NCBI RefSeq assembly: GCF_035474595.1
Contig: NZ_DATIND010000152.1
Coordinates: forward strand, 3,518 to 67,517
Origin: Longimicrobium sp.
Lineage (GTDB): Bacteria > Gemmatimonadota > Gemmatimonadetes > Longimicrobiales > Longimicrobiaceae
Length of the DNA stretch: 64,000 nt
Direction: 5' to 3'
The notes beneath the pieces were generated by a model. The model was given only the letters and a program-made list of their open reading frames with translations. It was not told the origin of the DNA and searched no databases. Below are positions 4,632 to 52,528 of the stretch, in pieces. How positions within the stretch are numbered: the stretch's first letter is position 1; each line of letters starts with the position of its first letter. The position numbers were made by a program, and so were the translations under genes.

Positions 4632-4633
4632 CG

Positions 4634-14815: not shown

Positions 14816-15271
14816 CGGAGACTCAGCGCGGGGACGGAGGGCGGCTCGATCCCGCCGCATCGCGCCCTCTCCGGCCGGCCTAGGCCGTCCACCTCTCCCG
14901 TACCGGGAGAGGTGGCTGGGCACCATCCGCGCGATGGGATGGCACCTTGCCCGCCTGGCTGGCCCCCTCCCCCCGGGCCCCTCCGCCCGCTCCGCGGGGG
15001 AGGGGAGAACTCAACGCGGGGGGAGCTTCGGGAGCGCGGGGATGCCTGATTGGGCCCACGCATCACACGCAAGGCGATGCGTGCGCGGCGGTTGAGCGCC
15101 ACGATCGAAGTTACCCCCTCCCGTTATCGGGGCCCGTTATCGGGAGGGGGTACGCGGCCCCAGCCGCGGGGGGGGCCGCGCGGGGGGAGGGGTTCCACGG
15201 GAGCGGCCTCAGCGCGCCATCGCCAGGACGCACTGAGTTGATCCATCGATCCACCGATCACCGAAATCCGA
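14816..15271. repeat. Intergenic composite REP-like palindrome cassette 1
   Basis: Unit A 14858-14920, unit B 14949-15020, unit C 15105-15176. Confidence 0.85.
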
Positions 15272-19789: not shown

Positions 19790-20119
19790 GGCCTCGGGCA
19801 TCGCGCCCTCTCCGGCCGACTGAGGCCGTCCACCTCTCCCGTACCGGGAGAGGTAGCTGGACGGGCATCGCGGGGGAGGGGAGAACTGAACGCGGGGGAG
19901 CTTCCGGGACCGCAGGGATGCTGGATTGGGCCACGCATCACACCGGAAGCGCGGCATGCACCACCACCGGCGCGCCACGTTCGAAGTTACCCCTCCCGTT
20001 ATCGGGAGGGGTACGCGGCCCCAGCCGCGGGGGGAGGGCTCCGCGGGTACGCGCCGAAGCCCGGTTCGAACCGAGGGAATCCGTAGCTCCTGAGCCACGC
20101 ACGCTCGACTGAAAGACCG
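19790..20119. repeat. Intergenic composite REP-like cassette 2
   Basis: Unit A 19799-19860, partial B, unit C 19981-20038. Confidence 0.85.
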
Positions 20120-23100
20120 ATGAGCGACACGCAGACACCGCCGATCTCCCCCGACCGCCTCGCGTCCGCCAAGCGCCAGCTCCTCGCGCGGCGGCTGCGC
20201 GGCGAGGTGAAGGCGCCCGCGCCGCGCGACGCCATCCGCAAGGCGCCGGGCGGGCCCGCGTACCCCATGAGCTATCAGCAGGAGCAGCTCTGGTTCCTGG
20301 ACCAGCTCCAGCCGGGAAGCCCGTTCTACAACATCCCCTCGGCCAACCTGGTCTCCGCGCGCATCGACGTGCCCACGCTGGAGCGCGCGCTGGGCGAGAT
20401 CGTGCGCCGGCACGAGGCGCTGCGCACCGTCTTCCGCCTGGTGGACGGGCGGCCGATGCAGATCGTGCAGCCGCCTTTCGCCCTCCGCGTTCCCGTGGAG
20501 GAGCTGCGCGGCGCGGACGGCGGAGACGCGCCCGCGGAGAGGGTGCGGCGCAAGGTGGGCGAGTGGGGCGCGCTCCCGTTCGACCTGCAGAACGGGCCGC
20601 TCATCCGCGCGCGGCTGTACCGCGTGTCGGAAGACGACTGCATGCTGGCGATGAACATCCACCACATCGCCACCGACGGCTGGTCAATGCCGCTCATCAC
20701 CCGCGAGATGGAGGAGCTGTACGAGGCCTTCGCGCGCGGCGAGCCGTCGCCGCTGGCCGAGCTGGAGGTGCAGTACGCCGACTACTCGGTCTGGCAGCGC
20801 GAGCACCTGGCCGGCGCGGCGATGGAGCGGCAGCTGGGCCACTGGCGCCGCCACCTGGAAGGCGCGCCGCCCTCGCTCGACCTTCCGTACGACCGGCCGC
20901 GCCCCGCCGTGCAGCGCAACCGCGGCGCCATCCACCGCTTCGTCTATCCCGCCGCGCTCACCTCGCAGTTGCACGCGCTGGGGACGGCGGAGCACGCGTC
21001 GGTGAACATGGTGTTCATGGCGGGCTTCAACCTCCTGCTGCAGCGCTACAGCGGGCAGAGCGACCTGGTGGTGGGCACGCTGCTGGGGAACCGCAACCGC
21101 GCGGAGCTGGAGTCGCTGGTCGGCTACTTCGTGAACTCCGGCGCCATCCGCACCCGGCTGGACGGCGACCCCACCTTCCGCGAGGTCGTGCGCCAGGTGC
21201 GCACCTCGGTGCTGGAGGCCGACGCCGCGCAGGAGGTGCCGTTCGACCGCGTGGTGGACGCCGTGGGCGCGCCGCGCGACCCCGCGCGCAACCCGCTGTT
21301 CCAGGTCATGTACTTCCACCACACCTTCGTGGGGATGCACCACCTGGACGACGAGGAGGGGCTGGCGTCGTCGCTGAACCTGCGCTCGCTGTACCAGGAG
21401 ACCGACGTGGTGCTGGTGGACACCGGCGCCGCCAAGTTCGACATGACCTGGGCCACGCTGGAGCAGGACGGCGCGCTCACGTCGATGGTGGAGTATTCGA
21501 CGGATCTGTTCGACGAGTCGACCATCGCCCGCATGGTGGCGCATCTCCGCGCGCTCCTGGCCGACGCCTGCGCCCGCCCGGACGTCCCCCTCTCCCGGCT
21601 GGAGATGGTGACAGCGGAGGAGCGGGAGATGCTGCTCGCCGCGGGGACCAACGAGGGCGCGTTCCCCCGCGGCGTCTCGCTCCCCGCGCTACTGCGGGCG
21701 CGCGCGGAGGCGATGCCGGACGCCGCCGCGGTGGAGTTCGAGGACGCATCGTGGACGTATGCGCAGCTCGCCGCGCGCGCCGACGCCGTCGCCGCGCGGC
21801 TGCTGCGCCTGGGCGTGGCGCCGGGGGACGCGGTCGGCATCGAGGCGGCCAGCACCGCGCGGGTCGTCGCCTCCATCGCGGGGGTGCTGCGGCTGGGCGC
21901 GGCGGTGGTCCCGCTCGACCCCGAATATCCGCGCGAGCGGCTGGCGTTCATGGCCGGCGACACGGGCATCCGCGCCGTCCTCGCCGAAGGAGACCGGCTG
22001 GCGTGGCTCGGCGAGCGCCCCGGCACCACCGTCGTCCGGCTGGACCGCGAGTGGGCGGAGATCGAGGCGGAGCCCGTCCCCCACCATCTCCCCGACGCCG
22101 ATCCCGAGGCCGCCGCCTACCTCATCTACACCTCCGGATCGACCGGGACGCCGAAGGGGGTGCGCGTTCCCCACCGCGCGGTCGTGCGGACCACGCATCG
22201 CCCCGATTACGTGGAGATCGGGCCCGGCGCGCGGATGGCGCAGCAGAGCAGCCTGTCGTTCGACGCGTCGGTGTTCGAGGTGTGGGGCGCGCTGCTGAAC
22301 GGCGCCACGCTGGTGAACGTGCCGCGCGACATCCTCCTCGACGCGGGTGCGTACGGCCGCGCGCTGGCGGAGAAGCGCATCTCCGTGGCCTTCCTCACCA
22401 CCGGGCTCTTCCACCAGGTGGCGGACACGAACCCGGCCGCCTTCGCGTCGCTCGGCCACGTCCTCTTCGGCGGCGAAGCCGTGTCGGCCGCGCACGTGCG
22501 GCGGGTGAGCGAGGCGCATCCCCATCTCCGCCTGACCAACCTGTACGGCCCCACCGAGGTGGCGGTGGTCACCACCAGCCACCGCGTGGCCCCCGCCGAC
22601 GTGGAGCGCGCGTCGATCCCCATCGGCCGGCCGATCGGCGGGACGCGCGTGTACGTGATGACGGCGGGCGGGCAGATGGCGGGTGTGGGCGTGCCCGGCG
22701 AGCTGTACGCGGCGGGCGAGGGCGTGGCGCTGGGCTACCACCGCCGCCCGGAGCTGGATGCGGAGCGTTTCGTTCCGGATCCGTTCGTGGCGGGCGCCAT
22801 CGCGTACCGTACGGGCGACCGCGTGAGATGGTGCGAAAGTGCGAAAGTGCGAGAGTGCGAAAGTAACTCACCGCGCGCGGAGTTTTCTTCTCCGACACCC
22901 GGTCGCCCGACGCTCGCGCGGCCGTATGCAGGCCGCGCCGACCCCGTCCCTCCCCCAGGCAGTTTCGGGGGAGGGACAGGCGAGGAACGAGCCAGGGAGA
23001 GGGCCCACGAGGCCGAGGATCCGCGCGGTGCCGAATCCCGCGACGAACCCACTCTCGCACTCTCGCACTCTCGCACTTTCGCACTTCAGTTCCTGGGTCG

Positions 23101-25098: not shown

Positions 25099-28000
25099 AT
25101 GAGCGACGCCGACCGCCTGGCCGCCCTCCCGGCCGAGAAGCGCCGCCTCCTCGAGGCGCGGCTGCGCATCGCGCGCGACGCCGTGTCCGGCGGCGGCGCC
25201 GGGGCGCTGCGCCCGCGCGCGCGGCCGGACGGCACGGCGCCGCTCTCGTTCGCGCAGCAGCGCCAGTGGCTGCTGGAGCGGATGGATCCGGGGACGGCGA
25301 CCTGGAACATGCCCGTGGCGCTGCGGCTCCGCGGCGCGCTCCACGTCCCGGCGCTGGAGCGCGCGCTCGACGCGCTGCGCGACCGGCACGAGTCGCTGCG
25401 CACCACCTTCGCCGAGCGCGGCGGCGCGGCGGTGCAGGTCGTCCACCCCTTCGTCCCCATCCCCCTGCCGGTCGAGGACCTGTCGCACCTCGACGGTTCG
25501 GAGCGCGAGGCCGAGGCGATGCGGCGCGCGCAGGCGGACATGGACGCGGGGTTCGCCCTGGCGGCCGGGCCGCTCTTCCGCGCGCGGCTGCTGCGGCTGG
25601 CCGCCGCCGACCACGCGCTGCTCCTGTGCATGCACCACATCGTCAGCGACGGGTGGAGCCTGGGGGTGATGGAGCGCGAGCTGGCCGCCCTCTACGCCGC
25701 CTTCGCCGCGGGGGCGCCGAACCCCCTGCCGCCGCCCGCGCTGCAGTACGCGGACTTCGCGGCATGGCAGCGCGAGTGGCTGTCGGGCGACCGGCTGGAC
25801 GGCGAGGTGGAGTTCTGGCGGCGCGCGCTGGCCGGCGCCCCGCCCGCGCTGGCGCTGCCCACCGACCACCCGCGCCCGCCGGTGAAGAGCGCGCGCGGCG
25901 CCCGCGTCTCGGTGGACCTGCCGCACGCGGTGGCGGAGCGGCTGCGCGCGCTGGCGCGGGGCGAGAACGCCACCCTCTTCGCCGTGCTGCTGGCGGCGCT
26001 CCGCGTGGTCCTCACGCGCTGGTCCGGCGACGACGACGTGGTGATCGGTACGCCGGTGGCCGGAAGGACGCGGATGGAGACGGAGGCGCTCGTCGGCTAC
26101 TTCGTGAACACGCTGGCGCTGCGCACGCCGCTCTCCGGCGACCCGCCCTTCCGCGCGCTGCTGCGCCGCGAGGCCGAGACGGCGCTGAGCGCGTTCTCGC
26201 ACCAGGAGCTGCCGTTCGACCGCGTGGTGGACGAGCTGAAGGCGCCGCGCGACCCCTCGCGCACGCCGCTCTTCCAGGTGATGCTCGCGCTCCGCAACGC
26301 CGGCGAGGACGGGCTCCGGCTCCCGGGTCTGGCTGTGGAGCCGATGGCGACGGAGCTGCACGTCAGCCGCTTCGACCTCACCTTCGAGGCGGCCGAATCC
26401 GACGGCGAGATCAACCTGGTCTGCGACTACGACGCCGCGCTCTTCGAGCCGTCCACCGCGCGCGCGCTCCTCGATCACCTCGCCCTCGTCCTCCACCGCG
26501 CCGCCGAATCCCCCGACGCGACGCTCTCCGCAGTGGCGACGTGGGACAAAAAGGACAACGCGCCCCGGGTCGCCCCGAACGACCCGGCATCGCTCCTGTG
26601 GGACAAAAAGGACAACGTCTCGGAGCGAAGCGAAACCGTCGTCAGCCGCTTCCTCGCCGCCGCGGCGCGGACGCCGGATGCGCCCGCGCTGGCGTGGCGC
26701 GATGGGGGGATGACATACGCGGAGCTGGAGATGCGCTCCGCCGCGCTGGCTGCCGGGCTGCGCGCCCGAGGCGCCGGGCCGGAGACGGTCGCCGGCGTGT
26801 TCGCCGAATGGTCGCCGGAGCTGGTGATCGCGCTGCTGGGAGTGATGCGCAGCGGCGCCGCGTATCTCCCGCTCGACGCGTCGCTCCCGCTTGAGCGCAT
26901 CGGCTGGCTGCTGGGGGATACGCACGCGCGCATCGTGGTGACGACGCCCGCCCTGCGCGACAGCCTTCCCGACGGCGGCCGCTTCGTAGCGCTGGTGGAT
27001 GCGGCGGAGACGGCGGACCGGGGGGATTGGGAGGACGGGGAGATCGACCCCGATTCCGCCGCCTGGATCGTCCACACCTCGGGGACGACGGGCGCGCCGA
27101 AGGGCGTCGTGGTCCCGTACGGCGCGGTGGCCGCGCACCTGGCCGCGGTCGCGGAGGCGTACGGGCTGGCGCCGGAGGATCGGACGCTCGGCTTCGCGGC
27201 GCTGTCGTTCGATCCGTCGCTGGAGCAGGTGCTGGCGCCGCTGGCCGTCGGCGCGTCCGTCGCCCTGCGCGACGCGGAGCCGTGGACGCCGGAGGAATTA
27301 GCGCGGCGCCTCCCGGCGCTGGGCGTCACCGTCGCCAATCTCCCCACGCCGTACTGGCACCAGCTCGTCCGCGAGCCGGAGGCGGCCGCCGCGGTGAAGC
27401 GATCCGTCCGCCTCCTCGTTGCCGGCGGCGAAGCCATGCACCCCGACGCCGTCCGCGCCTGGGACGCGCTCCCCGGCGGCGCCGCGCTGCTGAACGCGTA
27501 CGGCCCCACCGAGGCCGTCGTCACCGCCACCTTCTTCCCCGTCCGCGACGGCTTCGCGGCCGCCGACCCTGCGCGCGTCCCCATTGGCGCGGCGATCGCC
27601 GGCCGCGAGCCGCGCGTGGTAGACGCGATGCTGCGCGCGGTCCCGAACGGTGCGCCCGGCGAGCTCTGCCTGGGCGGCCCCGCGCTGGCCCGCGGCTACC
27701 TGCGCGCCCCCGCCCTCACGGCGGAGCGCTTCGTCCCCGACCCGTTTTCCCGCGAGGCGGGGGCGCGGATGTACCGAACGGGCGACCGCGTGAGATGGTG
27801 CGAAAGTGCGAAAGTGCGACAGTGCGAAAGTATCAACTCGGCACTCCCGCATCCGACGCTCACGCCGATGGATGCAGGCCCCGCGAACCCCGTCCCTCCC
27901 CCAGGCAGTTTTGGGGGAGGGACAGGCGAGGAACGAGCCAGGGAGAGGGCCCGCGGAGGCGCGGAAACGCGCACCGCCGACTCCTGCGATGTGTCCACTT

Positions 28001-31000
28001 TCGCACTCTCGCACTCTCGCACTTTCGCACCTTCGCTCGCACTCGATCTCCTCGGCCGCACCGACGCGCAGGTAAAGATCAGCGGCGCGCGCGTCGAGCC
28101 CGGCGAGGTCGAAGCCGCCCTGCGCGCGCTCCCCGACGTGGCGGAATGCGCCGTCGCCGCGCGGGCGGACGCGTCGGGGGAGATGCGGCTCGCGGCGTAC
28201 GTCGTCCCGCGCGGCGAGCTGGACGCCGCCGCCGTCCGCGCCGCGCTGGCCGCGCGCCTCCCGGCGTGGCTCGTCCCCTCGGCAATCGTCCCCATCGGCG
28301 CGATCCCGCGCACGGCCACGGGAAAGATCGACCGCCGCGCCCTCCCGCCGCCCGACTTCGCCGCCGCCTCCGCGCGCGGCGAGCCGCCGGTGACCGAAGA
28401 CGAGCGGATGCTGGCCGCGATCTGGGCCGAGGTGCTGGGCGCGGACGCCATCGCCGCGAGCGACAACTTCTTCGAGCGCGGCGGGCACTCGCTGATGGCC
28501 ACGCAGGTCGTCTCCCGCGTCCGCTCGCTCCTGGGCGTGGAGCTGCCGATGCGCGCCGTCTTCGAATCCCCCGTGCTCCGCGACCAGGCCCGCCGCCTCG
28601 GCGCGCTGCGCGGGGCGGGGGAGATGGAGCAGGCGGGGGATGCGGCGCCGGCGCGGACGGAAGCGGCGGGGGCGCTCCCGCTGTCGTTCGCGCAGGAGCG
28701 GCTCTGGTTCATCGACCGGATGGAGCCGGGGAGCGCCGCCTACAACGTCCCCGCCGTGCTCGACGTCACCGGCCCGCTGGACGTGGCCGCGCTGGAGCGC
28801 GCGCTCGGCGAGATCGTCCGCCGCCACGAGCCGCTGCGCACCGTTTTCGCCATCGAAGGCGACGCGCCGGTGCAGGTCGTGCAGCCTTTCACCGGCTTCC
28901 ATCTCCCCGTCACCGACCTGTCACGGCTCCCGGCGGAGGTGCGCGAGCTGGAGACGGAGCGCGCCCTTGCCGCCGAGGCGCGCGCGCCGTTCGACCTCGC
29001 CGCGGGGCCCGTCTTCCGCGCGCGCCTTATCCGCCAGGGCGAGCGCGAGCACGTCCTCTCGCTCGTCCTCCACCACATCGCCACCGACGCGTGGTCCGGC
29101 GGCATCATCCTGCGCGAGCTGGAGGCGCTGTACGACGCCTTCCGCCGCGGCCAGCCGTCGCCCCTCCCGCCGCTGCCGATGCGCTACGCCGAGTTCGCGG
29201 CGCGGCAACGCCAGTGGCTGAGCGGGCCCGCGCTCGAGCGGCAGCTGGAGTTCTGGCGCGCGCGGCTGGCCGGCGCCCCCGCGCTGCTCGAGCTCCCCGC
29301 CGACCGGCCGCGCCCGGCGGTGCAGGACACGGCCGGCGCCCTCCTCCCCTTCGTCCTTCCCGCCGACGCCGCCACCCTCGCGCGCGCCGCCGCCCGGCGC
29401 GAGGGCGCCACGCTGTTCATGGTGCTGCTGGCCGCCTTCCAGGCGCTCCTGCACCGCTGGACGGGCGAGGAAGACGTGGTGGTCGGCACGCCCATCGCCA
29501 ACCGCGCGCGGCCCGAGCTGGAGGGGCTGGCCGGCTTCTTCGGCAACACGCTGGCGCTGCGCGGCGACCTCTCCGGCGACCCGACGTTCGCCGCGCTGCT
29601 GCGCCGCGTGCGCGACGCCACGCTGGACGCGTACGCCCACCCGGACGTGCCGTTCGAGAAGCTGGTGGACGCGCTGAAGGTGCCGCGCAGCCTGAGCCAC
29701 GCGCCGCTTTTTCAGGTGATGCTCACCGTCCAGAACACGCCAGCGGGGGATGGCGATGCGCTCGGTGAGGCGCGCCTCCGCCCGCGCCGCGTGGAAACGG
29801 CCACGTCGCGCTTCGACCTGACGCTGATCCTGTTCGAGGCGGAGGATGGCCGGATCCGGGGCTGGGCCGAATACGCCACCGCGCTCTTCGACGAATCCAC
29901 CATCGAGCGCCTGACGCGCCACCTCGGGACGCTCCTCCGCGAGGCCGCCGCGTCGCCCGGCATCCCCATCTCCCACCTGTCCCTTCTGTCCGGCGAGGAG
30001 CGCGGCCAGCTCCTCCGCGGCCTCAACCGCACCGATCGCCCGCGCGCGGCGGAAACGGCGCACGCGCTCGTCGCCGCGCAGGCGGCGCGCACGCCGGACG
30101 CCGCCGCGATCGAACATCAGGGCGAGCGGGTGACATACCGGGAGATGGAGGCGCGCGCCAACCGCCTCGCGCACCGCCTGCGCCGCCTGGGCGTCGGCCC
30201 CGACGCGCGCGTCGCCGTGGCGATGGAGCGGTCGGTGGAGATGGTGATCGCCACGCTCGCCGTCGCGAAGGCGGGCGGCTGCTGCGTCGCCGTCGATCCG
30301 GCGTATCCCGCCGATCGCGTCGCGTACATGCTGGCCGACAGCCGCGCCGCCGTCGTCCTCACGACGTCGGACGTCGCCGCGCGCCTCGCCTCGTCCGCCG
30401 CACGCGTCCTCCGCATCGACGCCGAGCGCGAGGAGATCGCGCGCGAGCCGGCGGACGATCCGCGTGTCGAGGTCGATCCCGAGAACCTGTTCTACGTCCT
30501 CTACACCTCCGGTTCCACGGGCCGGCCGAAGGGCGCCGCGCTCCCGCACCGCGCCGTCGCCAACCTCCTGCGCTGGCAGATCGAGCGGTGGGGGGATGCC
30601 GCGCCCGTGCGGACGCTGCAGTTCGCCTCGCTCTCCTTCGACGTCGCGTTCCAGGAGATCTACGCCACGCTCGCCAGCGGCGGCACGCTCGTGCTGATCG
30701 ATGACGACACGCGGCGCGACCCCGAGGCGCTGATGCGGCATCTGCGCGAGCACCGCATCGAGCGGCTGTTCCTGCCGTTCGCGGCGCTGCAGAACCTCGT
30801 CGAGGGGACAGGGAAAAGGGGACAGGGGACAGGGAACGGCGATCCGGCCTCGTCCGCGGCGCATCTCCCCGACCTCCGCGAGGTGATCACCGCGGGCGAG
30901 GCGCTGCGGTCGACGCCGCAGCTGCGCGCCTTCTTCCGCGCGAACCCGCAAGCCGCGCTGGAGAACCAGTACGGGCCCAGCGAGACGCACGTCGTCTCGG

Positions 31001-32181
31001 CGCAGCGCGTGGAGGGCGATCCGGAGGCGTGGCCCGCGCTCCCGCCGATCGGCGCGCCGGTGGACAACACGCGGCTGTACGTGCTGGACGCGCGGATGCA
31101 CCCCGTCCCCCTGGGCGTCCCGGGCGAGCTGTACGCGGGCGGCGCCAGCCTGGCGCGCGGCTATCTCGGCCGCCCCGCGCTCACGGCGGAGCGTTTCGTC
31201 CCCGACCCGTTCGGGCCAGCGGGGGGACGGCTGTATCGCACGGGAGACCGGGTGAGATGGTGCGAAAGTGCGAAAGTGCGAGCTTGCGAAAGTAACAGCC
31301 CGGCACGCCAGCATCCGACGCTCGCGCAGCCGGTCACAGGCCCCGTGAACCCCGTCCCTCCCCCAGGCAGTTTTGGGGGAGGGACAGGCGAGGCACGAGC
31401 CAGGGAGAGGGCCAACGATGCGGCGGACGCGCATGATCGCGAGTCCCGCGACGAGCCCACTCTCGCACTTTCGCACTCTCGCACTTTCGCACTTCAGTTC
31501 CTCGGCCGGACCGACTTCCAGGTAAAGCTCCGCGGCTTCCGCGTGGAGCCCGGCGAAATCGAGGCGGCGCTCACGGAGCACCCGTCGGTCGCCCAGGCCG
31601 CCGTCGTGGTGCGCGGCGACGGGGCGGGGAAGCGGCTCGCGGCGTACGTCGTCCCCGCGGCGGGCGCGGCGGCCGACGTGGCCGGGCTGCGCGCGCACCT
31701 CGCGGGGCGGCTTCCCGAGTACATGGTGCCGGCCGCGTGGCGGGTGATGGACGCGCTCCCGCTCACCCCGTCCGGCAAGCTCGACCGCCGCGCCCTCCCC
31801 GAGCCGGACGCCGCGGCGCCGACCGCCCCGATGGCGACGCCGAAGAGCGCCACGGAGCGCGCCGTCGCCCGCGTCTGGTGCGACGTGCTGGCGGTCGATG
31901 CGGTGGGGCTGGACGAGAACTTCTTCGAGATCGGCGGCCACTCGCTCCTCCTCGTCGCCCTGCAGAAGCGCCTGCGCGACGCGCTGGATGCCGAGATCTC
32001 GGTCATCGACCTCTTCCGCTTCCCCACCGTCCGCGCGCAGGCCGCGCACATCGCGTCGCAGGGGGATGGAGCCGCGGCAGGCGCCGACGCGCGCGGCGAC
32101 ACGCGATCCGAAACGGCCGCGCAGCCCGGCCACGACCGCGCGGCCATGCGGCGCGAGATGCTGCGGCGCGGGCGGAGGTAG
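25099..32181 (+). CDS. NRPS4: (C(LCL)-A-T)x2; A codes DPENVGAVTK (basic residue-like) and DVQFIAQVVK (Pro-like)
   Basis: ATG 25099 lies 5 nt after the NRPS3 stop. Two C domains (HHIVSDG, HHIATDA), two A domains, two GGHSL T domains. Confidence 0.92.
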   Translation: MSDADRLAALPAEKRRLLEARLRIARDAVSGGGAGALRPRARPDGTAPLSFAQQRQWLLERMDPGTATWNMPVALRLRGALHVPALERALDALRDRHESLRTTFAERGGAAVQVVHPFVPIPLPVEDLSHLDGSEREAEAMRRAQADMDAGFALAAGPLFRARLLRLAAADHALLLCMHHIVSDGWSLGVMERELAALYAAFAAGAPNPLPPPALQYADFAAWQREWLSGDRLDGEVEFWRRALAGAPPALALPTDHPRPPVKSARGARVSVDLPHAVAERLRALARGENATLFAVLLAALRVVLTRWSGDDDVVIGTPVAGRTRMETEALVGYFVNTLALRTPLSGDPPFRALLRREAETALSAFSHQELPFDRVVDELKAPRDPSRTPLFQVMLALRNAGEDGLRLPGLAVEPMATELHVSRFDLTFEAAESDGEINLVCDYDAALFEPSTARALLDHLALVLHRAAESPDATLSAVATWDKKDNAPRVAPNDPASLLWDKKDNVSERSETVVSRFLAAAARTPDAPALAWRDGGMTYAELEMRSAALAAGLRARGAGPETVAGVFAEWSPELVIALLGVMRSGAAYLPLDASLPLERIGWLLGDTHARIVVTTPALRDSLPDGGRFVALVDAAETADRGDWEDGEIDPDSAAWIVHTSGTTGAPKGVVVPYGAVAAHLAAVAEAYGLAPEDRTLGFAALSFDPSLEQVLAPLAVGASVALRDAEPWTPEELARRLPALGVTVANLPTPYWHQLVREPEAAAAVKRSVRLLVAGGEAMHPDAVRAWDALPGGAALLNAYGPTEAVVTATFFPVRDGFAAADPARVPIGAAIAGREPRVVDAMLRAVPNGAPGELCLGGPALARGYLRAPALTAERFVPDPFSREAGARMYRTGDRVRWCESAKVRQCESINSALPHPTLTPMDAGPANPVPPPGSFGGGTGEERARERARGGAETRTADSCDVSTFALSHSRTFAPSLALDLLGRTDAQVKISGARVEPGEVEAALRALPDVAECAVAARADASGEMRLAAYVVPRGELDAAAVRAALAARLPAWLVPSAIVPIGAIPRTATGKIDRRALPPPDFAAASARGEPPVTEDERMLAAIWAEVLGADAIAASDNFFERGGHSLMATQVVSRVRSLLGVELPMRAVFESPVLRDQARRLGALRGAGEMEQAGDAAPARTEAAGALPLSFAQERLWFIDRMEPGSAAYNVPAVLDVTGPLDVAALERALGEIVRRHEPLRTVFAIEGDAPVQVVQPFTGFHLPVTDLSRLPAEVRELETERALAAEARAPFDLAAGPVFRARLIRQGEREHVLSLVLHHIATDAWSGGIILRELEALYDAFRRGQPSPLPPLPMRYAEFAARQRQWLSGPALERQLEFWRARLAGAPALLELPADRPRPAVQDTAGALLPFVLPADAATLARAAARREGATLFMVLLAAFQALLHRWTGEEDVVVGTPIANRARPELEGLAGFFGNTLALRGDLSGDPTFAALLRRVRDATLDAYAHPDVPFEKLVDALKVPRSLSHAPLFQVMLTVQNTPAGDGDALGEARLRPRRVETATSRFDLTLILFEAEDGRIRGWAEYATALFDESTIERLTRHLGTLLREAAASPGIPISHLSLLSGEERGQLLRGLNRTDRPRAAETAHALVAAQAARTPDAAAIEHQGERVTYREMEARANRLAHRLRRLGVGPDARVAVAMERSVEMVIATLAVAKAGGCCVAVDPAYPADRVAYMLADSRAAVVLTTSDVAARLASSAARVLRIDAEREEIAREPADDPRVEVDPENLFYVLYTSGSTGRPKGAALPHRAVANLLRWQIERWGDAAPVRTLQFASLSFDVAFQEIYATLASGGTLVLIDDDTRRDPEALMRHLREHRIERLFLPFAALQNLVEGTGKRGQGTGNGDPASSAAHLPDLREVITAGEALRSTPQLRAFFRANPQAALENQYGPSETHVVSAQRVEGDPEAWPALPPIGAPVDNTRLYVLDARMHPVPLGVPGELYAGGASLARGYLGRPALTAERFVPDPFGPAGGRLYRTGDRVRWCESAKVRACESNSPARQHPTLAQPVTGPVNPVPPPGSFGGGTGEARARERANDAADAHDRESRDEPTLALSHSRTFALQFLGRTDFQVKLRGFRVEPGEIEAALTEHPSVAQAAVVVRGDGAGKRLAAYVVPAAGAAADVAGLRAHLAGRLPEYMVPAAWRVMDALPLTPSGKLDRRALPEPDAAAPTAPMATPKSATERAVARVWCDVLAVDAVGLDENFFEIGGHSLLLVALQKRLRDALDAEISVIDLFRFPTVRAQAAHIASQGDGAAAGADARGDTRSETAAQPGHDRAAMRREMLRRGRR
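26541..26616 (+). repeat. 19-nt repeat GTGGGACAAAAAGGACAAC x2 (third copy at 35342-35360)
   Basis: Identical copies at 26541, 26598 and 35342, each read as WDKKDN. Confidence 0.9.
27798..28042 (+). repeat. In-frame palindromic A7-A8 insert, copy 5 (81 codons)
   Basis: Same arms and core. Confidence 0.95.
30803..30840 (+). repeat. AGGGGAC heptamer array in frame in the NRPS4 second A domain
   Basis: Encodes GTGKRGQGTGNG. Confidence 0.85.
31260..31492 (+). repeat. In-frame palindromic A7-A8 insert, copy 6 (77 codons)
   Basis: Same arms and core. Confidence 0.95.
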
Positions 32182-32552
32182 GAGCATTGGTGCGGGGAGA
32201 GGGTGCGGAGCGCGCCCGCGGCGCCGCGCCCTCTCCGGCCGGCTTAGGCCGTCCACCTCTCCCGTACCGGGAGAGGTAGCTGGGTGGGATTGGTGCTGGG
32301 GGGCTGCATCCTGCCCGCCTAACCGCGGAGAAGCCTCCGGAGGCGCGGGGATGCTTGAGTAGGCCACGCATCAAGCGGTCACCCGACGAATGCGCCACCA
32401 CCTGAGCGCCGCGACCGAAGTTACCCCCTCCCGTTATCGAGAGAGGGGACGCGGCCCCAGCCGCGGGGGGAGGGCCCAAGGGGGCGCGGCCGAAGCGCCA
32501 TCAGTGGGTCGCACGACAGCAGGATTGAGTAGCTCATCACAGGATTGAGTAG
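32182..32552. repeat. Intergenic composite REP-like cassette 3
   Basis: Unit A 32225-32284, unit C 32416-32476. Confidence 0.85.
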
Positions 32553-37321: not shown

Positions 37322-38410
37322 ATGACGATGTCCCAAGCCGTTTCGCCGCTGCCGGAAATGCCGATGCCGGAAACGAAGAAGAAGCCCAAGGCCGTGAAGT
37401 GCGTGGTGTGGGACCTGGACCACACCGTGTGGGACGGCATCCTGCTCGAGGACGACCACGTGGAGCTGCGGCCGGGGGTGCTCGGCATCCTGCGCACGCT
37501 GGACGAGCGCGGCATCCTGCAGTCCATCGCCAGCCGCAACGACCGCGACCGCGCGATGGAGCGCCTGCGCGCGCTCGGCATCGACGACTACTTCCTGCAT
37601 CCGCAGATCGACTGGAGCGCCAAGGGGCAGAACGTCGAGCGCATCGCCAGGAAGCTGAACATCGGCCTCGACACCTTCCTGTTCATCGACGACCAGCCGT
37701 TCGAGCGCGAGGAGGTGGCGTTCGCCTGCCCGCAGGTGCGCACCATGGACGCGGCCGACCTGGCCACGCTCCTCGATCTCCCGGAGATGAACCCCGAGTT
37801 CATCACCGACGACAGCCGCCGGCGCCGCGAGATGTACCGCGCCGACATCGAGCGGCAGCAGGCCGAGGAGACCTTCGCCGGCCCCAGCGAGGAGTTCCTG
37901 CGCGGGCTGCGGATGCGCTTCACCCTGGCCCCGTGCGGCGAGGAAGACCTGCAGCGCGCCGAGGAGCTGACGGTGCGCACCAACCAGCTGAACACCACCG
38001 GCTACACCTACGGCTACGACGAGCTGGACGCCTTCCGCACCTCGCCGGACCACGTCCTCCTGGTCGCGGGGCTGGACGACCGCTACGGCACCTACGGCAA
38101 GATCGGCCTGGCGCTGGTGGAGAAGACGAGCGCCGGGTACTGGACGGTGAAGCTGCTGCTGATGAGCTGCCGGGTGATGAGCCGCGGCGTGGGCACCATC
38201 ATGATGAGCCACATCATGCGCCTGGCGAAGGACGCGGGCGCGAAGCTCCGCGCCGAGTTCGTCCCCAACGGCCGCAACCGGATGATGGAGGTCACCTACC
38301 GCTTCGGCGGCTTCCACGAGGTCGAGCGCCGCGGCGACATGATCCTCTTCGAGCACGACCTCGCGGCCATCGCCCCCTTCCCCGAGTACGTCGAGGTGGA
38401 GGTGGGATAA
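37322..38410 (+). CDS. fkbH: FkbH-like HAD-superfamily glyceryl transferase (HAD-IIIC plus GNAT-like C-terminal domain)
   Basis: KCVVWDLDHTVWDG, SIASRN, FIDDQPFERE, RTNQLN, LMSCRV are FkbH-family motifs. The start could be 37322, 37328 or 37358. Confidence 0.88.
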   Translation: MTMSQAVSPLPEMPMPETKKKPKAVKCVVWDLDHTVWDGILLEDDHVELRPGVLGILRTLDERGILQSIASRNDRDRAMERLRALGIDDYFLHPQIDWSAKGQNVERIARKLNIGLDTFLFIDDQPFEREEVAFACPQVRTMDAADLATLLDLPEMNPEFITDDSRRRREMYRADIERQQAEETFAGPSEEFLRGLRMRFTLAPCGEEDLQRAEELTVRTNQLNTTGYTYGYDELDAFRTSPDHVLLVAGLDDRYGTYGKIGLALVEKTSAGYWTVKLLLMSCRVMSRGVGTIMMSHIMRLAKDAGAKLRAEFVPNGRNRMMEVTYRFGGFHEVERRGDMILFEHDLAAIAPFPEYVEVEVG

Positions 38411-39017
38411 GGGATGAAGCGTCACAAACCCTGACGTCATCCTGAGGGCGGCCACGTCGCCGCCGGTCCCGCGCCGATGACGGCAGCCCGAAGTATCCAT
38501 AGCCGGAGCATGAGCGTCAGCCGGCGGAAACGCGCGGCGTCATCGGTGCGGGGAGCAACCACCGGTGATCGCCCGGCGCCGCGGCCCTCTCCCCCGGCCC
38601 CTCCCCCAAAACTGCCTGGGGGAGGGGAGACCTCATCGCGAGGAGAGTCGGCGGCTCGATTCAGGATTGCATCCTGCCCGCCTGGCTGGCCCCCTCCCCC
38701 CGGCCCCTCCGCCCGCTCCGCGGGGGAGGGGAGGACTCAACGCGGGGAAGGCTTCGGCGCCGCGCGGGGATGCTGGAGCGGGCAACGCATCACACCACAG
38801 CTGAAGCGTACGCCACCACTTGCGCGCCGCAATCGAAGGTACCCCCCCCGTTATCGGGAGGGGGGTACGCGGCCCCAGCCGCGGGTGGAGGGCCCCACGG
38901 GCGCCGCGGAAGGGAGCTGATGCCTGGTATGCGGTGAGTTCGATCGGCTAATCGGTGATTTCAGCCGTGCTGGCAAGTGCGAGGGGATCCAGTCACCACC
39001 ATCCCAGCGAGCACCCC
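38411..39017. repeat. Intergenic composite REP-like cassette 4, including a free copy of the insert core hairpin
   Basis: GTCATCCTGAG half-element near 38433, core hairpin 38582-38627, unit B 38676-38746, unit C 38833-38893. Confidence 0.85.
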
Positions 39018-42000
39018 ATGCAGGACCTGCTCGACCGCAAGGCGGGCCTCACCGACGCCCGGCGCGCGCTGCTGGAGAAGCGGCTGCGCGGCGAGTCCCG
39101 CGGCGCCCGTCCGCGCGAGGCGATCACCCGCTGCGCCGGCGACGGGCCCGTCTTCCCGCTCTCGTTCGCGCAGGAGCGGATGTGGTTCCTGGCGCAGATG
39201 GACCCGGGCAGCCCCATGTACCAGGTCCCCGTCGCCATCTCCATCCGCGCCGACGTGGACGTGGACGTCCTGGAGCGCGCCGTGGCCGAGGTGGTGCGCC
39301 GACACGAGGCGCTGCGCACCGTCTACCGCATGGTGGGTGGCGAGCTGAAGTCCGTCGTCCTTCCGCCGTACCCGGCGCGCGTGGACGTCTTCGACCATCG
39401 CGGCCGCATCGCCGCGGGCGAGAGCGTGCGGGCGCTCATCGCGGAAGAGGGCGCGCGGCCGATCGACATCTCCACCGGCCCGCTGGTGCGCGTCACCCTG
39501 CTGCGCGTGAGCGACGAGCGCTGCGTGCTGGTGAAGACCACGCACCACATCACCACCGACGGCTGGTCCGAGCCCGTCATCTTCTCCGAGATCGACCACC
39601 TGTACGGCCGCTTCGCGCGCGGGCTGCCCAGCGATCTGCCCGAGCCCCCTCTCCGCTACGCCGACTACGCCGTCTGGCAGCGGCGCTGGCTTTCCGGCGA
39701 CACGCTGCGCGAGCAGGTGGACTACTGGCGGAAGCTCCTGGCCGGCGCCCCCGCGCTCGACCTCCCCACCGACCGTCCCCGCCCGCCCGCCGAAAGCCAC
39801 CGCGGCGCCATCCTCCGCTTCACCGTGCCGCCCGGGCTGACGCTGGCGCTGCGCGAGCTGTGCGCGCGCGAGCGGGTGACGCTGAACATGGTGCTCACCG
39901 CGGGCTTCTTCGCGCTGCTGCACAAGTATTCGGGGCAGAGCGACATCGTGCTCGGCGCGCTCTTCGGCAACCGCAGCCGCGCGGAGCTGGAGCGCATCGT
40001 GGGCTACTTCGTGAACACCGCCGCGCTGCGGATGGACGTGTCGGACGACCCCACCTTCGTGGAGATGGTGGCCCGCGCGCGGACCGCGGTGCTGGACGCC
40101 GACGCGCACCAGGACCTCCCGTTCGAGAAGCTGGTCGACGAGCTGGACCTGCCGCGCGACCTCAGCCGCCACCCGCTGTTCCAGGTGATGTACTTCCACC
40201 ACGTGTACGTGGAGATGCACCGCGCCTCGGACGACGGGATGCTGAGCGCGCTGGACCCGCGGCCGGTGCACGTGGAGCACAGCGTGGCGCTGGTCGACAC
40301 CGGCGTCTCCAAGTTCGACCTGCTGCTGAGCACCATCGAGTCCGGCGACGGGCTGATGGCCACGCTGGAGTTCGCCACCGACCTGTGGGACGTGGCGTCG
40401 ATGCAGGCGTTCTCCGCGCGGCTGCTGGCGCTGCTCGGCGACGCCGCCGCCCGCCCGCACGCCCGCCTCTCGCGCCTGTCGATGCTGGACGACGCCGAGC
40501 GCGAGTCCATCCTCCGCGCCTCCCGCGGCATCGAGCGGGAGATCCCGTTCATCCCCCTCCCCCGCCGCTTCGAGACACAGGCGGCGGCGACGCCGGGCGC
40601 GCCCGCGCTAACGTACGACGGCGCGACGCTCACCTACGCCGAGCTGAACGCGCGCGCCAACCGCCTGGCGCGCCGCCTCCGCGCGCTCGGCGCCGGGCCG
40701 GAGGTGCGTGTGGGTGTCTGCCTGGAGCGCACGCCGGAGCTCGTCGTCTCCCTCCTCGCCGTCCTGAAGTCGGGCGCGGCGTACGTCCCGCTCGACCCGG
40801 CGCATCCCTCCGCCCGCCTGCGCGCGCTGCTGGCCGACGCGCGCGCCCCGCTCCTCATCACCACGTGGGGGAGATGGGAGGCGATCGGCGGCGACCGTGT
40901 CTCGCCTGTCCTCATCGACGCGCACGCGGAGGAGATCGGGCGGGAGGAAGATGGCGATCTGGAGATGGAGATCGATCCGCGCACGCTCGCCTACGTCCTC
41001 TTCACCTCCGGCTCCACGGGAACGCCGAAGGGGGTGGAGGTCCAGCACGGCGGCGTCTCCAACCTCCTCGGCTGGATGCGGGAGATGGTGACGGACGACG
41101 AGCGCGCCGCCGTTCTCGCCTCGACCTCCGCCTCCTTCGACGTCTCCGTCGCGGAGATCTTCGACACCCTCTGCAACGGTGGCCGCCTCGTTCTCGTCGC
41201 CAACGCGCTCGACCTCGTGGGCCTCCCCGGCGCGGACGCGGTGACGATGGGGGTGATGGTCCCCACCGCCGCCGCCGAGCTTCTCCGCGCCGGCGCCCTC
41301 CCGCCGCGGATGGCGACGCTGAACCTGGGCGGTGAGGCGCTCCCGGCCACGCTGGTGGATGCGCTGCACGCGGCCGGTTCGGTGCGCACCGTCCGCAACC
41401 TCTACGGCCCCACCGAGGCGACGGTCTACTCCACCGTCGCCGTCGCCGAGCCCGGCGCGGAGCGCGTGAGCATCGGCCGCCCCGCCGCCAACACGCGCGC
41501 CTGGGTGCTGGACGCGGCGATGGAGCCCGTGCCGCCCGGCATCCCCGGCGAGCTGTACGTGGCGGGGGCGCAGGTGGCGCGCGGCTACCTGCATCGCCCC
41601 GCGCTCACGGCGGAGCGATTCCTCCCCGACCCGTTCTCTCGCGAGGGCGGGGCGCGGATGTATCGGACGGGCGACCGCGTGAGATGGTGCGAAAGTGCGA
41701 GAGTGCGAGAGTGCGAAAGTAACTCATCGCGAGGTGAGACTTTCTCTCCCCCGACACCCAATCGCCCGACGCTCGCGCCGGCGGATGCAGGCCGCGCCGA
41801 CCCCGTCCCTCCCGCAGGCAGTTCTGGGGGAGGGACAGGCGAGGCACGAGCCAGGGAGAGGGCCCACGGAGGCGAGGAAACGCACTCTGCCAGTCCGCGC
41901 GAAGACCCCACTTTCGCACTCTCGCACTCTCGCACTTTCGCACCTTCTCTCGCACTCGAATACCTCGGGCGCCTGGACAGCCAGGTAAAAGTCCGCGGCC

Positions 42001-43877: not shown

Positions 43878-44227
43878 AGGAGATCTGGACTGACCGTTAG
43901 GAGGGGCTTCGGCACCGAGCGGAGATGCTCCGCCCGCTTGGCTGGCCCACGCCCCCGGCCCCACCGCCCGCTCCGCGGGGGAGGGGAGAACTAACCGCGA
44001 GGAGCCTCGGAGCGCGCCACGATGGCTGGGTTTCGCCTCGCGGCACACCACCGCCCGACGACTGCATCACCGCCCGAGCGCCCAATCGAAGTTACCCCCT
44101 CCCGTTATCGGGGCCCGTTATCGGGAGGGGGTACGCGGCCCCAGCCGCGGGGAGGGCCCACGGGGGCGCGGCCGCAATGAAGCCCGGCAGCGCCACCCAT
44201 CCGCGGTAACGAGAGCCTGAGCCTGAG
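43878..44227. repeat. Intergenic composite REP-like cassette 5
   Basis: Unit B 43932-43998, unit C 44086-44158. Confidence 0.85.
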
Positions 44228-47671
<3,444 letters not shown>

Positions 47672-51124: not shown

Positions 51125-52324
51125 ATGCTAGCCGACCCGCGCCCCGAGCTTCGCCCGCTGCTGGGCCGCATCTCCGCCTTCGTGCAGGGCGAGCTGGCGC
51201 CGCTGGAGGAGCGCTTCCTGCGCGAGCCCGTGCGCGCCATCCTCCCCGCGATCCGCGAGGCGCGCGAGCGGGTGAAGGCGGCCGGGATCTGGGCGCCGCA
51301 TCTCCCGCGCGACCTGGGCGGCCTGGGGCTGCCGCTGGCCGACTTCGCGCACGTCAGCGAGGCGCTGGGCCGCTCGCCGCTCGGCCACCTGGCGTTCAAC
51401 GCGCAGGCGCCCGACGTCGGCAACATGGAGCTGCTGCACGCCCACGGCAGCGAAGAGCAGAAGGATCGCTGGCTCCGTCCGCTGGCCGCCGGCGCGCTCC
51501 GCAGCTGCTTCTCCATGACCGAGCCCGACCGCGCCGGCTCCAACCCCGTGTGGCTGGAAACCACAGCGCGGCGCGACGGCGGCGACTACGTCATCGACGG
51601 GCGCAAGTGGTTCACCTCGTCGGCCGACGGCGCCGCGTTCGCCATCGTCATGGCCGTCACCAACCCCGACGCCGAGCGGCCGCACGCGCGCGCCAGCATG
51701 ATCGTCGTCCCCGCCGACACCCCCGGCTTCCGCATCGTCCGCAACATCCCCGTGATGGGCGAGGCGGGCGAGGACTGGTTCTCGCACGCCGAGGTCACGT
51801 ACGACGGCGTTCGCGTGCCCGTCGGGAACCGCATCGGGGCCGAGGGCGCGGGGTTCCTGCTGGCGCAGGAGCGGCTGGGGCCGGGGCGCATCCACCACTG
51901 CACGCGGTGGATCGGCGTGTCGGAGCGCGCCTTCGAGCTGATGTGCCGCCGCGCCGCGACGCGGGAGCTGGCGCCCGGGGAACTGCTTGCCGATCAGCAG
52001 GCCGTGCAGCACTGGATCGCCGAGAGCCGCGCCGAGATCGACGCCGCGCGCCTGCTCACGCTGAACGCCGCCGCGGTGATCGATGCCAGGGGCGCCCGCG
52101 CGGCGCGGGTGGAGATCAGCACCATCAAGTTCTACGTGGCCGGCGTGCTGCAGCGCGTGCTGGACCGCGCCATCCAGGTCCACGGCGCGCTGGGGATGAC
52201 CGACGACCTGCTCCTCTCGTGGTGGTATCGCCACGAGCGCGGCGCCCGCATCTACGACGGCCCCGACGAGGTGCACAAGTCGCTCGTCGCGCGCGAGGTG
52301 CTGAAGAAGTACCGGAGTGCGTGA
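51125..52324 (+). CDS. Acyl-CoA dehydrogenase (ACAD10/11-like)
   Basis: FSMTEP, GSNP, GRKWFTS, AQERLGPGRIHH, AIQVHGALG, RIYDGPDEVH. Confidence 0.9.
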   Translation: MLADPRPELRPLLGRISAFVQGELAPLEERFLREPVRAILPAIREARERVKAAGIWAPHLPRDLGGLGLPLADFAHVSEALGRSPLGHLAFNAQAPDVGNMELLHAHGSEEQKDRWLRPLAAGALRSCFSMTEPDRAGSNPVWLETTARRDGGDYVIDGRKWFTSSADGAAFAIVMAVTNPDAERPHARASMIVVPADTPGFRIVRNIPVMGEAGEDWFSHAEVTYDGVRVPVGNRIGAEGAGFLLAQERLGPGRIHHCTRWIGVSERAFELMCRRAATRELAPGELLADQQAVQHWIAESRAEIDAARLLTLNAAAVIDARGARAARVEISTIKFYVAGVLQRVLDRAIQVHGALGMTDDLLLSWWYRHERGARIYDGPDEVHKSLVAREVLKKYRSA

Positions 52325-52346
52325 GTGCGGAAGTGCGTGAGTGCGT
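52315..52346. repeat. GTGCG(TG/GA)A octamer variant array across the ACAD stop codon
   Basis: gagtgcgtgagtgcggaagtgcgtgagtgcgt. Confidence 0.7.
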
Positions 52347-52528
52347 TGGTTCCGCGCGCGTTGGGATGCTGACCGGCGTCCTCGCGTTCCCGCAGCCTCG
52401 CGCCGCCCTCTCCCCGCGCCTGAGAGCGCTCGTCCTCTCCCGTACCGGCGAGGGGGGTAGCCTGGCCACGCGCGGGGCCTGCAACCTCTGGCCGCACCCA
52501 TGTTCCGGAGTGGCGGTGATGCGGGATG

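Follow-up and report, generated by a model that had tools for sequence, protein, structure and literature searches.

A stretch of 64,000 nucleotides (nt) from Longimicrobium sp., a member of the Gemmatimonadota (this whole 64-kb stretch is hereafter called the window), has a GC content of 73% and carries a hybrid nonribosomal peptide synthetase (NRPS)-polyketide synthase cluster with nine adenylation (A) domains. A 28-nt palindromic sequence, hereafter the 28-mer, occurs once in a spacer between two genes of this cluster (the free copy) and eight times, in the opposite orientation, within inserts carried by eight of the nine A domains. These inserts are repeat DNA from an extragenic pool and are neither a catalytic or docking domain nor an intein or an intron. 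The best explanation, to which a probability of about 0.75 can be given, is that the 28-mer belongs to a dispersed family of palindromic elements and that a relative of the free copy, nested in arms made of tandem octamers, is carried by the A domains as an in-frame passenger. The free copy on its own is an ordinary, probably inert member of this family; its value is that it shows the origin of the odd A-domain inserts in the repeat pool.

The free copy of the 28-mer (CCCTCCCCCAAAACTGCCTGGGGGAGGG) lies at 38599-38626 on the + strand. As stated in the original prediction, positions 7435-7462 are its exact reverse complement, which was verified on both stretches. At up to 3 mismatches, the window contains nine copies, vs none in 100 dinucleotide-preserving shuffles. 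Eight of them are on the - strand, antisense to the synthetase genes and all within A-domain inserts (exact at 2576, 7435, 10813, 27894 and 31356, with one mismatch at 22948 and with two mismatches each at 41807 and 46894), the single + copy being the one at 38599; the window count is therefore eight coding and one intergenic. Four of the five substitutions found across the eight insert copies fall in the loop. An 11-nt head (GGCCCTCTCCC) occurs exactly nine times in the window, each time upstream of a 28-mer and on the same strand, so that the shared preceding sequence reported earlier for two copies holds for all nine. The head is separated from the 28-mer by 5 nt in the free copy vs 19 nt in every one of the eight inserts; this 14-nt indel, absent from the earlier description, breaks the flanking similarity between the free copy and the inserts. 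The stem (CCCTCCCCC/GGGGGAGGG) is compositionally simple, as expected if low-complexity runs of C and G matched by chance in a genome of 73% GC, but this explanation is refuted by the shuffles, the agreement extending moreover to the 10-nt loop and to the head beside all nine copies; virtually no credence can be given to it.

The inserts amount to 58-84 extra residues located after the Arg-Trp pair that follows motif A7 (YRTGD) and before the L(Q/E)(F/Y)LGR of motif A8. The eight inserts and the empty site are as follows:

2457-2711, + strand: insert c1, 255 nt, 85 amino acids (aa), in frame; core antisense at 2576-2603
7340-7528, + strand: insert c2, 189 nt, 63 aa, right arm shortened; core antisense at 7435-7462
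10718-10966, + strand: insert c3, 249 nt; core antisense at 10813-10840
14099-14113, + strand: empty site, the sole A domain of the nine without an insert, with a five-residue turn (RW-LDDGR-LRFLGR)
22832-23083, + strand: insert c4, 252 nt; core antisense at 22948-22975 (one mismatch, in the loop)
27799-28041, + strand: insert c5, 243 nt; core antisense at 27894-27921
31261-31491, + strand: insert c6, 231 nt; core antisense at 31356-31383
41688-41954, + strand: insert c7, 267 nt, the most complete, forming a long hairpin; core antisense at 41807-41834 (two mismatches)
46772-47029, + strand: insert c8, 258 nt; core antisense at 46894-46921 (two mismatches, in the loop)

Each end of an insert is built of some four octamers in tandem (GTGCGAAA/GTGCGAGA at the left end, their complement at the right end), the 28-mer being located in the middle, antisense to the NRPS gene. 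These arms enclose an element of about 60 nt that aligns, in reverse orientation, with an intergenic form of the 28-mer family (family B, see below): the reverse-complemented inserts match it across its head, its middle segment (GCTCGTTCCTCG) and its hairpin. In c7, the arms pair into a terminal stem of 35 bp (predicted folding free energy -99 kcal/mol, z -10.3). The view that the insert is a composite, with a hairpin wrapped in octamer arms, is thus upheld, the 35-bp terminal stem enclosing the family B-like element.

The reading frame is open in all eight inserts and all eight lengths are divisible by three, although at least six independent indels have occurred. As slippage of an 8-nt unit would be expected to cause frameshifts, the frame is under selection. 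With an alignment of the A domains of the window as input, AlphaFold2 gave pLDDT (predicted local distance difference test) values of 75-94 for the core of the domain and below 50 for residues 383-483, which lie between strands 374-383 and 483-486 and correspond to a beta-hairpin turn at the Acore/Asub junction. In the protein, the inserts would be read through as a loop of 58-84 residues, predicted to be disordered, at this junction. No Pfam family matches within the inserts, and a protein search with the insert peptide returned only 12 word-sharing candidates, none of which gave a score, so that the insert is not evidenced in catalogued proteins. An intein was considered because seven of the eight inserts begin with Cys; it was discarded on account of the size (58-84 aa), the lack of a domain match and the repeat origin. 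An assembly artefact was likewise discarded, given the eight in-frame copies and an independent assembly of sequencing run X1 that crosses the right junction of c2 without a mismatch. A domain 1 is interrupted twice, as it carries a methyltransferase between the A8 and A10 regions (3123-3425, residues 1039-1139 of the open reading frame (ORF) 9-4631) in addition to its repeat insert.

The original prediction linked the coding inserts to the extragenic repeats of the genome, and the 28-mer is indeed not confined to the cluster. A scan of one genome per prokaryotic species, two loop positions being left free, returned at least 126 copies in at least 120 stretches; the proportions given below for genome bins hold among the matches listed. 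Nearly all of these copies are from Longimicrobium, with one Gemmatimonadaceae bin. They have no NRPS context: no A7 or A8 motif was found within 450 nt of any of the 126. Only six of the 120 loci carry two copies. The source of the window is a soil metagenome, and run X1 contains 94% of the sampled words of the window at a depth of about 18. In this run, the summed contig depth is about 640 for the 28-mer and about 290 for the head, that is, about 35 and 16 copy-equivalents, nine of which are supplied by the window; two longer contigs of genome-like depth (19-20) carry the head and the 28-mer with different flanks.

The element of the genome bins is about 65 nt long, has the 28-mer as its 3' hairpin and exists in two main forms, family A (GGCCCTCACCCCC-AGCGTCGCTCCGCGACGCATCC-28-mer; 94 of the 126 copies) and family B (GGCCCCCTCCCCC-GCTCGTTCCTCGCGGC-28-mer; 23 of the 126). 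Its relation to genes could not be read from the longest spanning ORF, a test that was abandoned because spurious ORFs of 128-1494 aa cross every copy at 73% GC; it was replaced by the position of the stop codon of ORFs screened for GC at third codon positions (GC3), with random control positions. Among the 114 testable copies, 88 (77%) are located 29-50 nt past the stop of a co-oriented high-GC3 ORF, vs 37 of 360 random positions, and the canonical element starts 0-10 nt behind the stop codon. The adjacent stop is TAG in 66% of the cases, vs 44% for other ORFs at these loci (p = 4e-4). At least five T residues are found within the 8 nt that follow the stem in 32% of the copies vs 0.6% of random positions, and a T-rich, terminator-like tail is present in 32-50% of the copies. 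In its canonical form, the element thus has the appearance of a dispersed and oriented repeat of gene ends that resembles a terminator. Compensatory double changes were observed in the first hairpin of family A (GCGTCGC/GCGACGC replaced by GCGCCGC/GCGGCGC in L021, L052 and L071, and by GCATCGC/GCGATGC in L093), which suggests that this structure is itself maintained.

The free copy differs from these canonical members. The elements of its spacer are the following:

38583-38662, + strand: free intergenic element, with the head GGCCCTCTCCC at 38583-38593, the hairpin at 38598-38627 and a tail module (GAGACCTCATCGCGAGGAGAG...) at 38628-38662
38688-38765, + strand: elem2, with the head, a 13-nt gap and the tail as in the free copy but a different loop (GCCCGCTCCGC)
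38839-38868, strand not assigned: CCCGTTATCGGG-type hairpin repeat, also carried by the other four cluster spacers

The spacer is 544 nt long (38411-38954), from the stop of a HAD-like gene at 38410 to the start of the next NRPS gene at about 38955. An ORF that spans 38477-38920 has GC contents of 0.69/0.78/0.71 at codon positions 1/2/3, vs a GC3 of 0.89-0.95 for real genes of the window; as this shows no coding signature, the site of the free copy is non-coding. This ORF starts with ATG and would specify 147 low-complexity residues rich in Pro, Arg and Gly (...PAPPPKLPGGGE...) across the repeat mosaic, which makes it an annotation risk with gene callers.

The free copy is located 172 nt past the stop of the HAD-like gene and in the same orientation as this gene. 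The stem of its hairpin is 11 bp long and the loop 8 nt (RNA folding free energy -24.7 kcal/mol). No terminator-like site was called in 38300-39050, and the tail of the free copy reads GAGACCTCAT: no T run directly follows the stem, so that the window copy does not qualify as an intrinsic (rho-independent) terminator. Over about 75 nt, it matches elem2 with the same head-to-stem junction, the same 13-nt gap and a common tail (GAGAC(C)TCAnCGCGrGGA), the loop alone being different. It also lacks the middle segment of family B, about 14 nt that both the inserts and family B retain. The free copy would most likely be a decayed or recombined member of the family, in which the scaffold of elem2 carries the loop of the 28-mer. 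As it misses these 14 nt and a T tail and shares its scaffold with elem2, sequence comparison places it as a relative of the insert cores and as neither their donor nor their product.

The octamer arms constitute a second dispersed repeat. A scan of metagenomes with a 26-mer of the arm (GTGCGAAAGTGCGAGAGTGCGAAAGT) returned at least 121 sites in at least 115 stretches, and almost all the sites listed are outside NRPS genes, at the starts and ends of genes. Thirty-seven inverted arm pairs were detected, which span 69-477 nt and enclose 4-373 nt of unrelated sequence. The depth of the arms in run X1 is 4,400-9,300. In related contigs, inserts of 23-26 residues made only of arms are present at the same RW| site in five of ten A domains, the other five having an empty loop. 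In the Longimicrobium locus L041, a family A element with inverted octamer arrays on its two sides lies between genes that converge, which makes it an intergenic composite; a core with the flank of the insert type was seen in this window alone. The copies in related bins, the copy-equivalents of run X1, the arm sites and the composite of L041 all support the postulated link between the inserts and an extragenic pool. No target-site duplication and no constant flank was found at the 37 arm pairs or at the eight inserts. The outer terminus GAACGGCA adjoins 15% of the arrays vs 1.9% of the controls and marks a subfamily only.

Several further observations concern the arms. When joined, the outer termini of the arm elements of L121-L235 (GAACGGCA / TGCCGTTC) look similar to the loop DNA of the insert-less A domain (14084-14128, GACGGCCGGCTGCGGTTC), and in L207 and L232 the Trp codon and the next codons (TGGACGGAA) match the outer terminus of an arm; this resemblance could be due to target mimicry or to chance. 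A solo octamer array is found in frame at 8547-8578 in a condensation domain (AEDE[RVSEAGADAGSLSHSRTLALSHPVP]EHVLALNVHHALADGWS), where it forms an insertion of about 25 residues upstream of HHxxxDG that is not in the six other condensation domains of the window. Another array, at 52313-52348 (GAGTGCGTGAGTGCGGAAGTGCGTGAGTGCGTTG), overlaps the end of an acyl-CoA dehydrogenase gene, the TGA of the array being the stop codon (...KKYRSA*); arrays likewise supply stop codons in the related loci L041 and L124.

The age of the inserts can be approached through their divergence. They are 83% identical to each other overall, vs 57-58% for the 600 nt of A domain on each side, and the flanks of insert-bearing domains resemble those of the insert-less domain to the same degree. 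Within the inserts, the identity reaches 94-95% in the arms and 96.5% in the core but only 74% in linker 1 and 61% in linker 2. The synonymous third positions of the flanks are 56% identical vs 44% by chance; once base composition is corrected for, the linkers exceed chance by 0.45-0.63 and these sites by 0.22. As the linkers keep more similarity than the synonymous sites of the flanks, the comparison indicates that the composite spread after the divergence of the A domains, although not recently, and that the inserts are younger than the A-domain paralogs. Conversion tracts that extend beyond the insert are unsupported, since, next to the inserts, only the universal A7 and A8 motifs show high identity, which is just as high in the empty paralog.

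The reverse direction was also considered, in which the insert would be an old functional part of the A domain, inherited through the duplication of modules, and the free copy a fragment of coding sequence lost in a spacer. The identical codon position of the insert in eight domains, the identity of linker 2 (61%), close to that of the flanks, and the arm-type inserts found at the same site in related NRPSs would agree with this scenario. It nevertheless appears very unlikely: the chance-corrected linkers are less diverged than the synonymous sites of the flanks, one paralog and five of ten related A domains have an ordinary empty loop, the free copy aligns over about 75 nt with the purely intergenic elem2 and lacks 14 nt present in every insert, and the intergenic copies listed from other species, at least 126, are devoid of NRPS context.

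The contrast between arms and core (94-97%) and linkers (61-74%) hints at homogenisation against the genomic repeat pool or at a constraint on the hairpin, with both of which it is compatible. The hairpins may act at the RNA or DNA level in the NRPS genes, as RNase III or processing sites, pause sites, excised intervening sequences or recombination joints, and the free copy would be a hairpin with a regulatory function in the operon. A near-perfect duplex of 35 bp with a z of -10.3 makes up the terminal stem, the arms and the core are conserved amid drifting linkers, most 28-mer substitutions (4/5) spare the stem, the first hairpin of family A shows compensatory variants and the five spacers of the cluster have common modules in a common order. 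However, the constraint on frame and length in all eight inserts implies read-through by the ribosome, which would be needless under excision, no Rfam match was found and conversion against many genomic copies explains the conservation of arms and core equally well, so that this possibility is judged improbable. A related and similarly doubtful proposal is that arms and core are actively maintained in the synthetase genes, either as a recombination joint for the shuffling of modules or subdomains or for control at the RNA level (RNase III, ribosome pausing). A shared, in-frame and co-oriented block of 94-97% identity would then sit at the Acore/Asub hinge of eight A domains that are 57% identical, and the intergenic family would serve as a reservoir by which these joints stay homogeneous. 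A scan against the structured RNA families of Rfam 15 gave no hit at gathering score in the window, and none at E<=1 for the spacer and a canonical copy.

Under the preferred explanation, an in-frame passenger derived from a dispersed palindromic family, the history of these elements may be viewed as follows. The free copy would be a small non-autonomous palindromic repeat of the class of repetitive extragenic palindromes (REPs), bacterial interspersed mosaic elements (BIMEs) and MITEs (miniature transposable elements with inverted repeats), dispersed in Longimicrobium-type genomes. The canonical members of about 65 nt, in which a head (GGCCCTCACCCCC) and a variable middle precede the 28-mer hairpin, look like portable intrinsic terminators. 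The free copy itself would most likely just fold into a stable DNA or mRNA hairpin and be at most a 3'-end or processing barrier in the operon. The inserts would share ancestry with it without descending from it: each would consist of a family B copy, antisense, between inverted octamer arrays, and arrays devoid of core also fill the A7-A8 loop of other NRPSs. The composite may then have reached eight of nine diverged A domains either by gene conversion seeded in near-identical pre-existing arms or through an enzyme, with its gene outside the window, that inserts with a preference for this site.

A mobilising enzyme was looked for in the window: among about 30 ORFs scanned against Pfam, none encodes a Y1/RAYT (REP-associated tyrosine transposase), DDE, DUF559 or GIY-YIG protein, so that the nearby RAYT/TnpA(Y1), DUF559 or GIY-YIG gene for which the original prediction suggested a search was not found among them. 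The ORFs unrelated to the synthetases include those for an outer-membrane protein, an acyl-CoA dehydrogenase, an APH-family kinase, a PIN-domain protein, a secreted endonuclease, a PrsW protease and an SLT transglycosylase. A true REP/REPIN system could nevertheless be envisaged, in which a single-copy RAYT (Y1 HUH) encoded elsewhere in the genome would have moved the 28-mer, also into the A-domain inserts. The element is a short, GC-rich, imperfect and extragenic palindrome with many copies per genome, and the absence of target-site duplication is expected for HUH enzymes. Moreover, 57 classical GTAG-headed REPs (GTAGGGGCGCGATTCATCGCGCCC) were observed in the genome-bin loci (L001-L120), 28 of which, in a BIME-like arrangement, sit 21-55 nt behind a 28-mer element (28 of the 126 listed copies) on the same strand. 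This system remains unlikely, since no RAYT or Y1 gene was found among the window ORFs, the 28-mer copies occur singly and point the same way as the gene upstream of them (convergent gene ends account for the few inverted pairs) and the element lacks a fixed GTAG head of its own, no GTAG-headed REP being found in the window or in the metagenome loci. The term "REP-like" used in the prediction therefore holds loosely, for the palindrome and the copy number, but does not extend to inverted doublets or to an accompanying RAYT in the window.

Several points weigh against the preferred explanation. The mobility of the elements is inferred from their distribution, because no mobilising enzyme was found in the window ORFs and neither target-site duplication nor fixed arm flank was seen. 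The copy numbers come from other species and from the summed depths of short assembled contigs rather than from the source genome, and the lack of NRPS copies elsewhere describes a sample, the matches listed. As the free copy is devoid of terminator features, any role beyond the formation of a stable hairpin is conjecture. Lastly, the conservation of arms and core beside drifted linkers is unlike that of a purely neutral translated loop.

The spacer of the free copy is one of five in the cluster (14816-15271, 19790-20119, 32182-32552, 38411-38954 and 43878-44227), all of which share three or four common repeat modules, among a CCACCTCTCCCGTACCGGGAGAGGTGG hairpin, elem2 and the CCCGTTATCGGG hairpin, in identical order and with 88-99% identity. 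These spacers are either paralogous units or BIME-like mosaics. All three window copies of elem2 lie in spacers between cluster genes, the two others being:

14961-15040, + strand: elem2 copy, in the spacer after the three-module NRPS gene
43932-43992, + strand: elem2 copy, in the spacer before the last NRPS gene

The depth of elem2 in run X1 is about 1,700-1,900 vs about 18 for unique sequence, which makes it an abundant local subtype. The HAD-like gene is followed, right behind its stop, by a further repeat (38408-38458, ...GACGTCATCCTGAGGGCGGCCAC...), for which the source metagenome shows a depth of about 200; motifs that resemble it (GTCATCCTGAG) were seen in L137 and L227.

These data have practical consequences. 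For annotation, gene callers read such repeats as protein, for example the 147-aa ORF of the spacer, and tools that delimit A domains or predict their specificity may mishandle 58-84 extra residues. For mobile elements, the data point to a repeat family strictly located behind stop codons and to a family of tandem octamers, in a poorly studied phylum, both of which can nest and survive inside essential catalytic domains. For NRPS engineering, the A7-A8 turn appears to tolerate 23-89 extra residues in open frames, as judged from eight natural cases and five in related contigs, and the insert blocks shared by the A domains are plausible natural crossover points.

Among known systems, the phenomenon may be compared with the interrupted A domains, in which a methyltransferase or another domain lies between A8 and A9 or between A2 and A3. 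In both cases extra sequence is tolerated, and A domain 1 of the window also has such a methyltransferase, but the inserts described here lie between A7 and A8, belong to no Pfam family, are predicted to be disordered and consist of repeat DNA. The composite resembles MITEs by its long terminal inverted repeats (the 35-bp stem), its size of 189-267 nt, its lack of coding capacity of its own and its multicopy modules. It differs from them by the absence of a fixed length (69-477 nt for the arm pairs), by "terminal inverted repeats" that are tandem octamers and could also grow by slippage, and by a free copy that is merely a hairpin; membership fails on target-site duplication, none of which was found.

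REPINs are defined as two inverted REPs mobilised by a RAYT (PMC3337134 and PMC3116915). Like REPs and BIMEs, the 28-mer elements are extragenic, GC-rich and imperfect palindromes, present in tens to hundreds of copies and forming mosaics with other repeats. In contrast to REPINs, they are single gene-oriented copies with no fixed GTAG head and no RAYT in the window; membership in the REP/REPIN-RAYT group is not established, the palindrome and the copy number being in agreement with it and the inverted doublets missing.

We know of no description of SPRITE elements colonising coding regions. These elements of Streptococcus pneumoniae are dispersed and similar to rho-independent terminators, and BOX, RUP and SPRITE cluster and insert into one another (PMC10969869). 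Canonical copies located behind stop codons with T-rich tails, mosaic spacers and nested composites recall this situation, although sequence and host are unrelated and the window copy has no T tail.

Rickettsia palindromic elements (RPEs) are small palindromes found between genes and also in frame inside unrelated ORFs, where they are read through and tolerated (PMC10969869). Similarly, the 28-mer occupies one intergenic site and eight in-frame coding sites, and the insert forms a loop predicted to be disordered at what would be a tolerant surface position (pLDDT below 50 in the A7-A8 beta-hairpin turn, where the ordinary loop has five residues). Unlike RPEs, to which they have no sequence relation and which belong to another phylum, the inserts are composites of octamer arms and an antisense core, and they occupy one homologous codon position in paralogous domains of a single cluster rather than scattered genes. 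By analogy, the nearest counterparts would be RPEs for the coding copies and terminator-like repeats such as SPRITE for the intergenic family. The RPE-type phenomenon is known; what is unusual is a repeat family nested in a second repeat and lying in frame in eight of nine A domains.

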